Sequence record: OP172784
Length of the DNA stretch: 64,000 nucleotides
Direction: 5' to 3' (one strand)
Source of the DNA: Escherichia phage ECO07P1
The translations under genes and the position numbers were made by a program. Positions 24,642 to 29,684 of the stretch are shown in pieces. The notes below the pieces were generated by a model that did no database searches, had not been told where the DNA came from, and saw only the letters and a list, made by a program, of their open reading frames with translations. The stretch's first letter is position 1. The number at the start of each line of letters is the position of its first letter.

Positions 24642-25205
24642 ATGAAAACTTATGCCGAATTTTTAACCGAAGCAGCAAAATTACCATCTGAAGCAGAACT
24701 TACTAAAGTATTCTTCCAATTGGACCCAAAAGACCGTGGCGATTTTCTTAAGTGGAAAGCTAAAGCTATTGAAATGTATAACATTGATAATAGTTCTTTT
24801 ACGATGAGTCAAGAAAATAAATTCAATAAAGCATTTTTCAAAATTTCTAAGAAACTGGCATCTGGCGCTCAGGTTCCTAAATCTGCCTTAGCTACTCCTG
24901 AACGTGCGCCTGTTAAAATTTCTAAGAATATGTTCGACACTAAAAAATACGTTAATGCTTTGAATAAAGCTCTTGATGCATTGGATGATGCAAAGAAGGC
25001 AGCCCGTGATCTTCAAGACGTGTACATCGATTTTGATCGTAAAACTAAAGGTTCTATTTCAAATAGCGAACGCAATAGTGTAAGCGTTTATTCTGATAGC
25101 CTTGACGTTCTTGGCGATGCGTATACTGAAATTAAAAATCGTATTAACACCGCATCTAAACTAAAAGCTGCCGCAGAAGCTATAATAGCTAAACTAGATA
25201 AATAA
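24642..25205 (+). CDS. 187-aa protein with capsid-targeting sequence (candidate internal protein)
   Basis: N-terminus MKTYAEFLTEAA (CTS-like); lysine-rich helical remainder. Confidence 0.7.
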   Translation: MKTYAEFLTEAAKLPSEAELTKVFFQLDPKDRGDFLKWKAKAIEMYNIDNSSFTMSQENKFNKAFFKISKKLASGAQVPKSALATPERAPVKISKNMFDTKKYVNALNKALDALDDAKKAARDLQDVYIDFDRKTKGSISNSERNSVSVYSDSLDVLGDAYTEIKNRINTASKLKAAAEAIIAKLDK

Positions 25206-25998: not shown

Positions 25999-26592
25999 AT
26001 GAACACACTGAAGAAAATTGTTGATTTTATTCGCACTAAACTTGGTTCTGCAATGGCTAAAAATCTATCTGTTGAAGAACAGTATACTGCTGCAGCAGCA
26101 AAACTGCTTGATAAAATTAAAGACCTAAAAACTGCTTCTGTTAAATCTATTAATGAAGAAAAACGTATTCGTGAACTTATTGTTGAAAAGAATAAACAGG
26201 CTGAATCAAAAGAGCGTGAAATTCGCAAGCTTCTTTCCGAAGGTCAAGATGTAACAATGCATGCTAAACTTGGCTTGCTATATCGTCGAACAGCTGAACA
26301 GCTGACTACTAAAGCTGATGGGTATGCTGAAATGCGAATTGAAATCGCCAAGAAAGTAGTTGAGTTAGATGATGCTCGTCAAGAACTTGCAGTTAAATTG
26401 GAATATATCCGTGAAACTCGTGCGGCAAATGCCCTTGGAATTAGTACTGCTGATGATGTAGTTGAAATCGCAGCGCTAACTAAGGTTGATATTGAAGATA
26501 CTCTTGCTCGAGTTGAAACCTTTAACGGTAATATTTCCGGGGTTGAAACCACCTCTGCCGATGTCCAGGAATATATTAATTCTCTGAAATAA
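25999..26592 (+). CDS. alpha-helical coiled-coil protein, function unknown
   Basis: 197 aa, heptad-rich and charged. Confidence 0.65.
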
Positions 26593-26633: not shown

Positions 26634-27242
26634 ATGAAAATGCAAAGTGATTTCAATTCAATGTTTGAAGAGTTCCAAAGACAGGTTGATGTTCCAGACC
26701 AATTACTAAATGCTCTTAAACGTATGGCAGAAGGACGTAATTATTATTGGGGGTCTTCATATGAAACTGATGAAAGTCTTTCTGGAAGATTTTCTAGAGG
26801 TAAAAAGTCTTTAATACGTCCTGGAATACTCATTAAAAGTATTGAATCAATTCATTCATTGACGTGTGATTTTGATGTTGAATTTACTGATTTCATTTCT
26901 CCTGAATGGACAGTTTGTTATTTAAATGACGATTATGATTATCTTGGCGTTTATAGTTTAAGTGACGCATGGTTTAAACGTAATTTACAAAAGTCAAATT
27001 TGTTCTATATTGATACTACGGTAAAATTTCAGGGAAAGAAATATTTCTTTACTCTTATAGTTGACTCTGAAACAAAATATGAAAATAAGCGTATTCTTAG
27101 TAAAAAGAATATCTTAACTATCGTTGATGATCTTTTTGATAAATTCGTGGAAAATCCTAATTTTGAAAGCGATTTATTATTAGAAAAATTTGTTAAGGAA
27201 TGTAGAGAATATGTCAAAGCCATCACTATACCTTCCAAGTAA
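26634..27242 (+). CDS. hypothetical protein sharing the C-terminal FVKECR motif with the downstream membrane-protein family
   Basis: 202 aa; ends EKFVKECREYVK overlapping the next gene start. Confidence 0.65.
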   Translation: MKMQSDFNSMFEEFQRQVDVPDQLLNALKRMAEGRNYYWGSSYETDESLSGRFSRGKKSLIRPGILIKSIESIHSLTCDFDVEFTDFISPEWTVCYLNDDYDYLGVYSLSDAWFKRNLQKSNLFYIDTTVKFQGKKYFFTLIVDSETKYENKRILSKKNILTIVDDLFDKFVENPNFESDLLLEKFVKECREYVKAITIPSK

Positions 27243-27603
27243 ACCTGTGAAGTATGAACTAAAGCGTCAGCTAATTCCTACTGATGTATTAATAGGTCCT
27301 GTGACAGCTATATCATTTGTAATTCTATTGATTGTTGGAATGGTTATAGACTTTATGACTGATATTGAATCTGGCGTAATATTTTTGTTAATATTAATTC
27401 TTCCATTAGTAGTTCCATTTTTATTGGTACCTGTAAATTGGGTAGGATATTGGTATCAAGGAAGGCATTATCGTAAACGTGTACGTGAATGGAAAGCTCA
27501 GTGTAAAAAGATTAAAAAGGAACACCAGCTTAAACTAAATATGTATGAATTTAATGAAATTATGAAATTTGTTAAGGAATCACGATGCAAAAGCCAAAAC
27601 TAA
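27211..27603 (+). CDS. two-TM membrane protein, family member 1
   Basis: 130 aa; two hydrophobic helices, basic tail; C-terminus EIMKFVKESRC. Confidence 0.65.
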   Translation: MSKPSLYLPSKPVKYELKRQLIPTDVLIGPVTAISFVILLIVGMVIDFMTDIESGVIFLLILILPLVVPFLLVPVNWVGYWYQGRHYRKRVREWKAQCKKIKKEHQLKLNMYEFNEIMKFVKESRCKSQN

Positions 27604-27959
27604 ATAAAGTCAAATATTCTTTTTCTGAGTCATTTTTAATTTTTGCTGTGGCGTTGGCTGCAGCTCTTGCTGGTAGTCTTATTGGATTAATGATTGACTG
27701 TATTATTTTAAACATCCGCAGTAACGTCAGCGGTATAGTAGATATAATAGAAGTTTGGAGTGAACTTCATTATACTATAGCAATTTCATTATTTTCATTC
27801 TTTAGTATCATTTTATATTTTCATTATGATAATTTTAAAATAAATTGGCAAAGAAAAAAGGATTACAAAATACAATTAAAAGAATATAATAACTACATGT
27901 CTTATATTGAAAATGAATCAATGGAAGAGTTTGTGAGTGATTGCAGGAAAATCAAATGA
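27585..27959 (+). CDS. two-TM membrane protein, family member 2
   Basis: 124 aa; C-terminus EEFVSDCRKIK; stop overlaps next start (ATGA). Confidence 0.65.
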   Translation: MQKPKLNKVKYSFSESFLIFAVALAAALAGSLIGLMIDCIILNIRSNVSGIVDIIEVWSELHYTIAISLFSFFSIILYFHYDNFKINWQRKKDYKIQLKEYNNYMSYIENESMEEFVSDCRKIK

Positions 27960-28444
27960 TTTTAAAAACTCGCTGGTATGATTTAGATGACGGGGATGAT
28001 GGCATTTCAGTTGATAGAGTTGACTGGAATGGCTGTTCCGAAGATATGAAAAATTTGCTGATTAGGGAGTTTAGAATGGGATATCAACCAGTTAAGCCAT
28101 CTACTGCAACAGATGATAAGTTTGTATGTATTCAAAATGGCCGCGCTAAGTTAACGAACGCTGATTGGTTCACAGATAAGAAGGTTATTCTGTGGTATAT
28201 CATTAGTTTTCCTGTGACATCATTTGTATTTTGCTTCTTTGGAGAAAGTCCAGTAGGCAGAACGGGAGATTGGATTCTTTTAACCATACTTGTTAATATT
28301 TTTACAGCAGCAATATTATCTGGGATATGGTACATGTTCATTGAAATGCCATGGCGGTTACGTAGGCAGCAAAAGATTTTTGATGAAAAGAAATATACTC
28401 AAAATTTAAATAACTTTATCACTGAATGCAGGAAATTAAAATGA
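27956..28444 (+). CDS. two-TM membrane protein, family member 3
   Basis: 162 aa from MILKTRWY; C-terminus NNFITECRKLK; ATGA overlap with nudE. Confidence 0.65.
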   Translation: MILKTRWYDLDDGDDGISVDRVDWNGCSEDMKNLLIREFRMGYQPVKPSTATDDKFVCIQNGRAKLTNADWFTDKKVILWYIISFPVTSFVFCFFGESPVGRTGDWILLTILVNIFTAAILSGIWYMFIEMPWRLRRQQKIFDEKKYTQNLNNFITECRKLK

Positions 28445-28881
28445 AAACATTATCAGCTGGTATTATCTTTATGACAGAAGATAAAGATTTATTTATGGGA
28501 CGAGTTACTGGTTCTCGTAAGCCCGGAATGATGGCACATCGCTGGGATATTCCAAAGGGCCGCGTAGAAAGTTTTGATTTGAATGCACTGGAAGCTGCAA
28601 AAAGAGAATGCTCAGAAGAGACTGGTTTTAGCAATTATAATCCAGACCTTCTAGAAGACCTAGGTGTATTTAAATATTCTAGTAATAAAGACTTACAGTT
28701 ATTTTATTATACGATTCCAGTAGAGCATGAGATGTTTAGAAATTGCCATTGCGAGTCTTATTTTGAAAATAAAGATGGCGTTATGATTCCAGAGATGGAT
28801 GCTTTTGCTCTTATTCCTCGTACTCAGTGGCAATATGTGATGGGTCCTTCACTTTACCGAATAATGAACAACCTCTTTTAA
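28441..28881 (+). CDS. nudE: Nudix hydrolase NudE
   Basis: Nudix box (RECSEETGF); immediately upstream of e as in T4. Confidence 0.85.
   Translation: MKTLSAGIIFMTEDKDLFMGRVTGSRKPGMMAHRWDIPKGRVESFDLNALEAAKRECSEETGFSNYNPDLLEDLGVFKYSSNKDLQLFYYTIPVEHEMFRNCHCESYFENKDGVMIPEMDAFALIPRTQWQYVMGPSLYRIMNNLF

Positions 28882-29684
<803 letters not shown>

Follow-up and report, generated by a model that had tools for sequence, protein, structure and literature searches.

A C-terminal motif common to the four overlapping or abutting T4-type genes e.5, e.4, e.3 and e.2

Four consecutive genes of Escherichia phage ECO07P1 (sequence record OP172784), orthologues of T4 e.5, e.4, e.3 and e.2, all terminate in [LIM]-x-x-F-[VI]-x-[ED]-[CS]-R. 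We refer to the whole 64,000-nucleotide stretch analysed as the window. All four have long been known from T4 as hypothetical genes. Their motif is real at the protein level but has escaped the family databases: PHROG and Pfam file the genes as separate families, none of which records it, and the cross-family motif has apparently not been described before. The reading we favour, at roughly even chances, is that the motif is a common cytoplasmic docking or assembly helix carried on variable anchors, and that the proteins have an accessory early function other than lysis.

The C-terminal motif

The genes and their motif copies lie in the window as follows.

26634-27242, + strand: e.5 orthologue, 202 aa, predicted soluble; phrog_2607, E = 7.6e-110 over residues 1-202; follows e.6, as in T4
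27189-27206, + strand: e.5 motif, FVKECR, with AAGGAA codons ahead of the e.4 start
27211-27603, + strand: e.4 orthologue, 130 aa; phrog_2604, E = 3.8e-71 over 1-130/130; between e.5 and e.3
27568-27585, + strand: e.4 motif, FVKESR
27585-27959, + strand: e.3 orthologue, 124 aa; phrog_2330, E = 8.1e-62 over 1-122/122; between e.4 and e.2
27930-27947, + strand: e.3 motif, FVSDCR
27956-28444, + strand: e.2 orthologue, 162 aa; phrog_2203, E = 1.7e-79; directly upstream of nudE
28415-28432, + strand: e.2 motif, FITECR

Each copy stands 3-11 residues ahead of the stop codon. The six frames of the window (127,996 residues) contain five matches to the core F[VI]x[ED][CS]R. Four of the five are the ends of e.5 to e.2, against 0.044 copies expected in the + strand open reading frames (ORFs). 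The fifth, FINDSR (window 52721), lies inside an NrdH glutaredoxin homologue, 23 residues from its end, and is unrelated. A six-frame scan of T4, covering the genome except 50-63 kb, found the motif in e.5, e.4, e.3 and e.2, together with one unrelated match in NrdH and nothing else. A preliminary description of this DNA had reported a motif-bearing family of three proteins with two transmembrane helices, preceded by a 202-aa gene with the same ending, and both the motif count and the hydropathy profiles confirm it. That description gave the end of e.4 as KFVKESRC; the real end is ...KFVKESRCKSQN, not RC.

Across genera the signature is [LIM]-x-x-F-[VI]-x-[ED]-[CS]-[RK], on what is predicted to be an amphipathic terminal helix. 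The forms found are FIMECR, FVKEIR, FIKECR and FITECR in Mosigvirus, FIAECR, FIKEVR, FIKECK and FIEECR in Gaprivervirus, and FIAECR, FIKECK and FIEECR in Dhakavirus. Orthologues from different genera are 20-55% identical and the motif is nearly invariant, with invariant F, E and R/K columns in the alignments of e.4 and of e.2.

Architecture and constraint

Hydropathy finds no hydrophobic segment in e.5, which on this evidence is a soluble protein. It finds two hydrophobic helices in each of the others, at residues ~26-46 and ~56-78 of e.4, 17-40 and 61-80 of e.3, and 77-95 and 106-129 of e.2. Hydropathy and charge distribution place the first and second transmembrane helices (TM1 and TM2) and the other parts as follows.

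27286-27348, + strand: e.4 TM1
27349-27375, + strand: e.4 periplasmic loop
27376-27444, + strand: e.4 TM2, followed by the basic tail
27633-27704, + strand: e.3 TM1, followed by the loop
27765-27824, + strand: e.3 TM2, followed by the tail
27956-28183, + strand: e.2 soluble acidic N-domain
28184-28240, + strand: e.2 TM1, followed by the loop
28271-28342, + strand: e.2 TM2, followed by the tail

The numbers of lysines and arginines in N-terminus, loop and tail are 5/0/15 for e.4, 4/1/9 for e.3 and 12/1/9 for e.2. Because this bias fits the positive-inside rule, all three are predicted to be inner-membrane hairpins with both termini in the cytoplasm (N-in/C-in), a short, variable periplasmic loop of 9-20 residues and a strongly basic tail. 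Two helices and a basic tail had been described for all three, correctly, but for e.2 the picture was incomplete, as it omitted the 76-residue acidic soluble domain ahead of the hairpin. Comparison across genera shows an invariant acidic loop in this N-domain, [DN]-[LI]-D-D-[GC]-[DN]-[DE]-G-I...D-W, together with two conserved cysteines. The pattern is reminiscent of a metal-binding loop.

Variability within families is 2-4 times lower in the basic tail and motif helix than in TM1, loop and TM2, and the periplasmic loop is the least conserved segment of all. We compared the window with four Tequatroviruses by the ratio of nonsynonymous to synonymous substitution rates (dN/dS), excluding the e.5 and e.2 values of one of them (L007), whose alignments were broken. 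The ratios were 0.21-0.47 for e.4, e.3 and e.2, and 0.02-0.06 for e.6, 0.02-0.17 for e.5, 0.09-0.20 for nudE and 0.03-0.12 for the lysozyme gene e. By this measure the four genes are real and under purifying selection, with a predicted membrane part that evolves fast and a predicted cytoplasmic tail that is conserved.

Expression, fitness and database matches

The evidence on expression and fitness comes from the T4 orthologues, not from the window phage. In the supplementary tables of Wolfram-Schauerte et al. 2022 (PMC9697503), e.4 and e.5 are classed as early RNA and early protein, e.2 as early RNA and middle protein, and e.3 as early RNA and late protein; the protein was detected in all four cases. 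The supplementary files of a CRISPRi-ART knock-down study (PMC11879866) list e.2-e.6 as 'nonfit genes', with prior essentiality given as unknown. In the literature searched, e.2-e.5 are not discussed in the text of any paper, and supplementary tables alone list them.

Searches for known families gave little. NCBIfam and Pfam hold no family for the four proteins at E <= 1, the local Pfam copy having no model for any of them, and newer precomputed Pfam labels appear on database homologues, PF26873 on all close e.4 homologues and PF26896 on all those of e.2. No PADLOC defence model matched any of the four at E <= 1, and no PDB chain did so at E < 0.5. Many NCBI records of e.3 and e.4 (P0011, P0031, P0056, P0064 and others) are named 'sulfurtransferase'. 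No sulfurtransferase or rhodanese model of NCBIfam or Pfam matched at E <= 1, so the name appears unfounded and is probably a propagated error.

These data bear on one alternative, that the hairpins work like Imm and Sp in superinfection exclusion or envelope protection, directed against incoming phage or against membrane-targeting host defences. They are early, small, accessory proteins predicted to lie in the inner membrane; their dN/dS is 2-5 times above that of the neighbouring genes, their transmembrane and loop regions are variable, and PHROG labels e.2 'moron/host takeover: membrane protein'. Proteins of this kind would hardly be expected to have their constrained part in the cytoplasm and a periplasmic loop that is both short and the least conserved segment. 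Imm and Sp showed no detectable similarity by hhalign, their E values of 0.02-0.3 falling among those of the controls, and the PADLOC search adds no support. We therefore think this explanation unlikely. The roles in superinfection exclusion or membrane-targeted anti-defence proposed in the preliminary description are possible but unsupported.

Junction DNA and ribosome-binding sites

The genes are packed tightly. e.5 and e.4 overlap by 32 nt and e.4 and e.3 by 19 nt, and ATGA junctions are found at e.3/e.2 and e.2/nudE only. The tight and probably coupled junctions of the preliminary description are thus real, while its ATGA junctions hold for the last two and not for the first two. The repeats at the junctions are these.

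27186-27201 (e.5 end) and 27565-27580 (e.4 end), + strand: exact 16-nt repeat AAATTTGTTAAGGAAT, coding for K-F-V-K-E
27930-27959, + strand: junction repeat copy 1; motif codons, AGGAAA Shine-Dalgarno sequence and ATGA (e.3 stop/e.2 start)
28415-28444, + strand: junction repeat copy 2; motif codons, AGGAAA and ATGA (e.2 stop/nudE start)

The two 30-nt copies are identical at 24 of 30 positions (80%), with ATGA at the end of both, and the two 18-mers on which near-identity had first been noticed agree at 16 of 18. The junction DNA is nearly identical, and looks duplicated, because the codons of the motif usually also serve the following gene as its ribosome-binding site. Across four genera, with few exceptions, the following ATG is found 17-26 nt downstream of the F codon, and the Shine-Dalgarno sequence is built from motif codons, either those of x-E (AAG-GAA, GAG-GAA or AAG-GAG) or those of R-K (AGG-AAA).

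It could be argued from this arrangement that the motif is a nucleotide-level by-product, its codons serving as the translation-initiation region of the coupled next gene, with a U-rich stretch, Shine-Dalgarno sequence, spacer and ATG, and its amino acids being incidental. The spacing, the Shine-Dalgarno sequences within the x-E or R-K codons and the 80-100% identity of junction DNA between paralogues are all as this would predict. The amino acids, though, are kept through synonymous changes, those in the R and C codons altering the quality of the Shine-Dalgarno sequence (R is AGA, CGA, AGG or CGT; C is TGT or TGC; F is TTT or TTC), and the Shine-Dalgarno sequence falls at differing motif positions from member to member. 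The gene at the e.5 position in Gaprivervirus keeps FIAECR without Shine-Dalgarno-like bases, the annotated e.4 start being 40 nt downstream. Equally tight junctions are found at 44 ORFs of the window and the motif at only four of them, e.5 to e.2, and a ribosome-binding site explains neither the hydrophobic residues at positions -3, 0 and +1 nor the cysteine. The by-product explanation is therefore improbable. The synonymous codon changes, the shifting Shine-Dalgarno sequence, the FIAECR without one and the 40 other tight ORFs without the motif argue that the amino acids are selected. On this comparison selection is chiefly for the peptide, and the role in ribosome binding that is also present comes second. 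The same codon evidence and FIAECR, together with the likeness of the e.4 and e.3 N-termini, answer the objection named in the preliminary description, that the motif might be only a constraint of the ribosome-binding site.

At the RNA level, folding gave z = +1.0, +1.25, -1.31 and +0.44 at the junctions, which reveals no structure there and rules out a conserved RNA element or coupling hairpin. Rfam had no family matching the junction region. Promoter predictions were not enriched (30 found, 22.4 +/- 4.8 expected).

Descent, distribution and plasticity

BLASTP between the paralogues gave weak matches (E = 0.53, 0.005 and 0.16). We also compared profiles of the family alignments by hhalign, with controls from seven unrelated membrane ORFs of the window (28 comparisons, best E = 0.0035). 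Three of the six family pairs scored above these unrelated controls: e.4/e.3 (E = 2e-4, over the full length and including a common N-terminus, M-x-K-P-x-L...VKY), e.3/e.2 (E = 1.2e-4) and e.5/e.2 (E = 3e-4), the last two driven by the tail. Common descent is plausible for e.4 and e.3 and possible for e.2 with them; for e.5, the evidence of kinship is confined to the 15-residue tail motif. Tandem duplication, which the preliminary description had proposed for the set, is thus plausible but weakly supported: the full-length e.4/e.3 profile match and a natural in-register e.4/e.2 chimera (P0143, UFV11) speak for it, but BLASTP is weak, half of the pairs score at background and any duplication must be ancient. 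It must be ancient because all four genes are already distinct, each with orthologues of its own, in at least three genera. The compact tandem layout of the window is, on this comparison, one arrangement of an old set and not a recent duplication. The orders in the other genera, with an added (m) for each motif-bearing gene, are as follows.

Mosigvirus (L011): e.5 (m), e.4 (m), ~2.2 kb of other genes, a 101-aa two-helix gene (m), a 228-aa gene, e.2 (m), an 83-aa gene, nudE
Gaprivervirus (L012, L005): e.5-position gene (m), e.4 (m), e.3 (m), ~3.2 kb of other genes, e.2 (m)
Dhakavirus (MX01; L004, L019): e.5-position gene (m), e.3 (m), e.2 (m); no e.4

The insert between e.4/e.3 and e.2 in Mosig-, Gapriver- and Dhakaviruses holds a second family of tandem ORFs, 65-101 aa long and mostly ending in G-x-W-V-S-S-S-x-x-C (L011 7492-8286; L012 7691-8957; L019 853-1143, - strand). 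This second family is absent from the window.

Among 50,697 phage records, tblastn found e.5 in 643, e.4 in 656, e.3 in 607 and e.2 in 533. The 45 homologues of e.3 are all of T-even type. A joint profile of e.4, e.3 and e.2 matched 11 of 1.84 billion representative proteins; ten were fragments or variants of the same T-even genes and the weakest was a 745-aa protein (E = 8.3e-4). A scan of IMG/VR gave nine loci, from the same genera. In the searches made, the family is confined to T-even coliphages.

The plasticity of the locus suggests another explanation of the common 3' ends, that they are recombination joints. A conserved junction would be reused as a crossover point, so that unrelated genes come to share their last codons, much as happens with PeSL cassettes, the intergenic promoter-early plus stem-loop units of T4-type hyperplastic regions (PMC2839356, PMC4122927). 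PeSL-mediated shuffling is documented in T4-like phages (PMC4122927). The 3-kb cassettes that Mosig-, Gapriver- and Dhakaviruses carry behind e.4 or e.3 and the occurrence of chimeras and deletions would fit, as would the e.5-position protein of Gapriver- and Dhakaviruses, which has only the tail in common with window e.5 (in Gaprivervirus the alignment is limited to the last 15 residues, E = 2e-4). But the only chimera mapped joins inside TM1, at sequence common to both TM1 helices (TCCTGTGACA...TCATTTGTA), and not in the tail, and the junctions lack a promoter plus stem-loop. In addition, the DNA of the motif differs between genera while its amino acids persist, as purifying selection on the peptide predicts and a joint does not. 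We give recombination joints little credence.

Least probable is that e.4, e.3 and e.2 are holin-, antiholin- or pinholin-like factors that control lysis with the adjacent endolysin e, as the earlier suggestion of a role in lysis timing implied: their two-helix N-in/C-in layout with a charged C-terminal tail is that of a class II holin and they lie 0.5-1.7 kb upstream of e, but the T4 transcripts are early (PMC9697503), knock-down carries no fitness cost (PMC11879866), the T4 holin is t, encoded elsewhere, with hhalign E >= 0.04 to it and no holin family matched in Pfam or PHROGs, and reference T4 lyses normally despite a frameshifted e.2.

A putative docking or assembly helix

e.5-e.2 form a block of early-transcribed, overlapping or abutting genes that starts after a UUCG hairpin and runs into nudE. 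In the reading we favour, a common helix on variable anchors, the motif would be the working end of all four proteins: a docking or assembly helix by which, early in infection and on the inner face of the membrane, they bind one another or share a cytoplasmic partner. The body of e.5, the N-domain of e.2 and the three hairpins would then be exchangeable carriers. The genes e.4 and e.3, and probably e.2, would descend from ancient duplications. The function would be accessory, most likely in host takeover, exclusion or counter-defence rather than lysis.

Several results weigh against this picture. The docking partner is hypothetical for all four proteins. The hydrophobic moment of the motif helix is moderate (0.39-0.49), and its helical state is a low-confidence secondary structure prediction. 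AlphaFold2 models were too poor for a fold search, with a mean confidence score (pLDDT) of 38.8 for e.5, from a single sequence, and 48.8 for e.2, from 11 close homologues. e.4 has S, I or V in place of the motif cysteine. Part of the low variability of the motif is due to the overlapping ribosome-binding site and overlapping reading frames, and the three family pairs not listed above score at background in hhalign (E = 0.0036-0.044).

Natural variants are the remaining difficulty. Relative to the window, e.2 of reference T4 (NC_000866 67491-67960) has lost 1 nt and, 78 nt further on, gained 1 nt, and the frameshift leaves a 102-aa product without TM2 and the motif tail. Phages UFV05 and UFV11 have an in-register e.4/e.2 chimera and have lost e.3 (the UFV11 chimera, L015 1501-1821, P0143, is 106 aa long). 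MX01 has no e.4, and in the moskry locus e.3 is reduced to a 6-codon remnant. One metagenomic e.4 (P0197), of 69 aa, is without both membrane helices. To judge from these genomes, single members are dispensable in nature, and because they are lost or broken an obligate four-part complex is unlikely.

A more specific version seems to us possible but doubtful. The motif helix may be an undescribed short docking signal, by which e.5 and the three hairpins assemble on, or sequester, one host or phage cytoplasmic protein at the inner membrane in the first minutes of infection. If so, host takeover or counter-defence would here involve a new way of tethering to the membrane, one found specifically in T-even coliphages.

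Significance

About half of the T4 genes have no known function, e.5-e.2 among them. The invariant peptide, predicted to be cytoplasmic, ties the four together and provides a handle on them, as a 10-15-residue bait for pull-downs or for interface prediction and with clear sites for point mutants (F, E, C and R). Reference T4 is a poor model for e.2, since its product lacks TM2 and the motif tail. The region also places a protein motif and a ribosome-binding site on the same codons, and such overlap can make old paralogues look recently duplicated in their DNA. Beyond the motif handle and this lesson in codon sharing, the findings have no bearing on a major open question, and we judge their interest to be modest.

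Locus and neighbouring features

The 1.8-kb stretch of e.5-e.2 is matched by more than 500 deposited genomes of T-even-type phages, mostly Escherichia, Shigella and Yersinia phages of the genus Tequatrovirus, with a best match of 97.6% DNA identity. Measured against the annotated T4 record, the + strand of the window is the reverse of the T4 map, and the order and strand of the four genes relative to e.6, nudE and e are as in T4. By these matches the window comes from a T4-like phage of the genus Tequatrovirus, and its four genes are the orthologues of T4 e.5, e.4, e.3 and e.2. Identity to the T4 counterpart is ~95% for e.5 (10 nonsynonymous differences in 202 codons), 86% for e.4 and ~83% for e.3 (tblastn, T4 isolate). 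The intact 162-aa e.2 of the window corresponds to the annotated 102-aa stump of reference T4. The position of the e.4 start codon is conserved across genera. The flanking features are these.

25999-26592, + strand: e.6, 197 aa
26598-26613, + strand: C(UUCG)G tetraloop hairpin, core GGGGCTTCGGCCCC, between e.6 and e.5 (sequence reading and inverted-repeat scan)
28441-28881, + strand: nudE (Nudix hydrolase), the downstream coupled gene; PF00293, E = 1.5e-12, and T4 annotation
28918-29406, + strand: lysozyme e, by T4 synteny

The hairpin is very stable and is not followed by a T-run. It probably serves in mRNA stabilisation or processing, at the start of the tightly packed e.5-nudE block. At the other end of the block, nudE has two candidate starts. 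The T4 annotation uses the ATG at 28426 (151 aa), which falls within the e.2 motif and is formed by its E and C codons. The start 15 nt downstream at the ATGA junction (28441, 146 aa) is preceded by the better Shine-Dalgarno sequence, AGGAAA, at a spacing of 5 nt.

e.6 is a helical, coiled-coil-looking protein. We considered whether it is PspA/ESCRT-III-like and rejected this: BLASTP with a PspA sequence gave E = 0.033, and the profile score of 13.6 equalled those of reversed or shuffled PspA controls.

Comparison with known systems

Class II holins, or pinholins, have two transmembrane helices, an N-in/C-in topology and a charged C-terminus. e.4, e.3 and e.2 resemble them in size, hairpin topology, charged tail and proximity to an endolysin gene. 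They differ in their early expression, in the lack of a fitness effect on knock-down and in having no sequence relationship to holins. Moreover, their conserved element is a specific C-terminal helix and not the membrane helices, and T4 already has its holin, t.

T4 Imm and Sp are small, early, non-essential envelope proteins of T-even phages, and Imm is a two-helix membrane protein. e.4, e.3 and e.2 are similarly small, early and non-essential, and have two helices as Imm does. The site of action of Imm and Sp is the membrane or beyond it, whereas in e.4, e.3 and e.2 it is the predicted cytoplasmic tail that is constrained, and no similarity between the two groups is detectable.

Like PeSL cassettes, the e.5-e.2 junctions are short repeats at gene boundaries in a plastic T4-type region. 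The e.5-e.2 repeat is instead coding sequence plus ribosome-binding site, with its amino acids conserved, and at these junctions there is no stem-loop, no promoter and, as the genes overlap, no spacer.

A further analogy is with the T4 internal proteins. The otherwise unrelated Ip proteins have in common an N-terminal capsid-targeting sequence, MKTYxEFIxE, which directs them into the prohead and is cleaved. Five ORFs flanking e.5-e.2 in the window start with MK[TM]YxEF[LI]xE, on the + strand at 24642, 29403, 30163, 30485 and 31105 (187, 93, 40, 192 and 100 aa), and the order near e and denV is e, ip, denV, ip, ipIII-like, ipII-like, compared with e, ipIII, ipII, denV in T4. The capsid-targeting sequence, like the motif described here, is a short terminal peptide on neighbouring, fast-evolving and dissimilar proteins of the same hyperplastic region. 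It is N-terminal and cleaved, whereas the e.5-e.2 motif is C-terminal and stands on early proteins that are, as predicted, membrane-anchored. It is a precedent for a terminal peptide used as a common address label.

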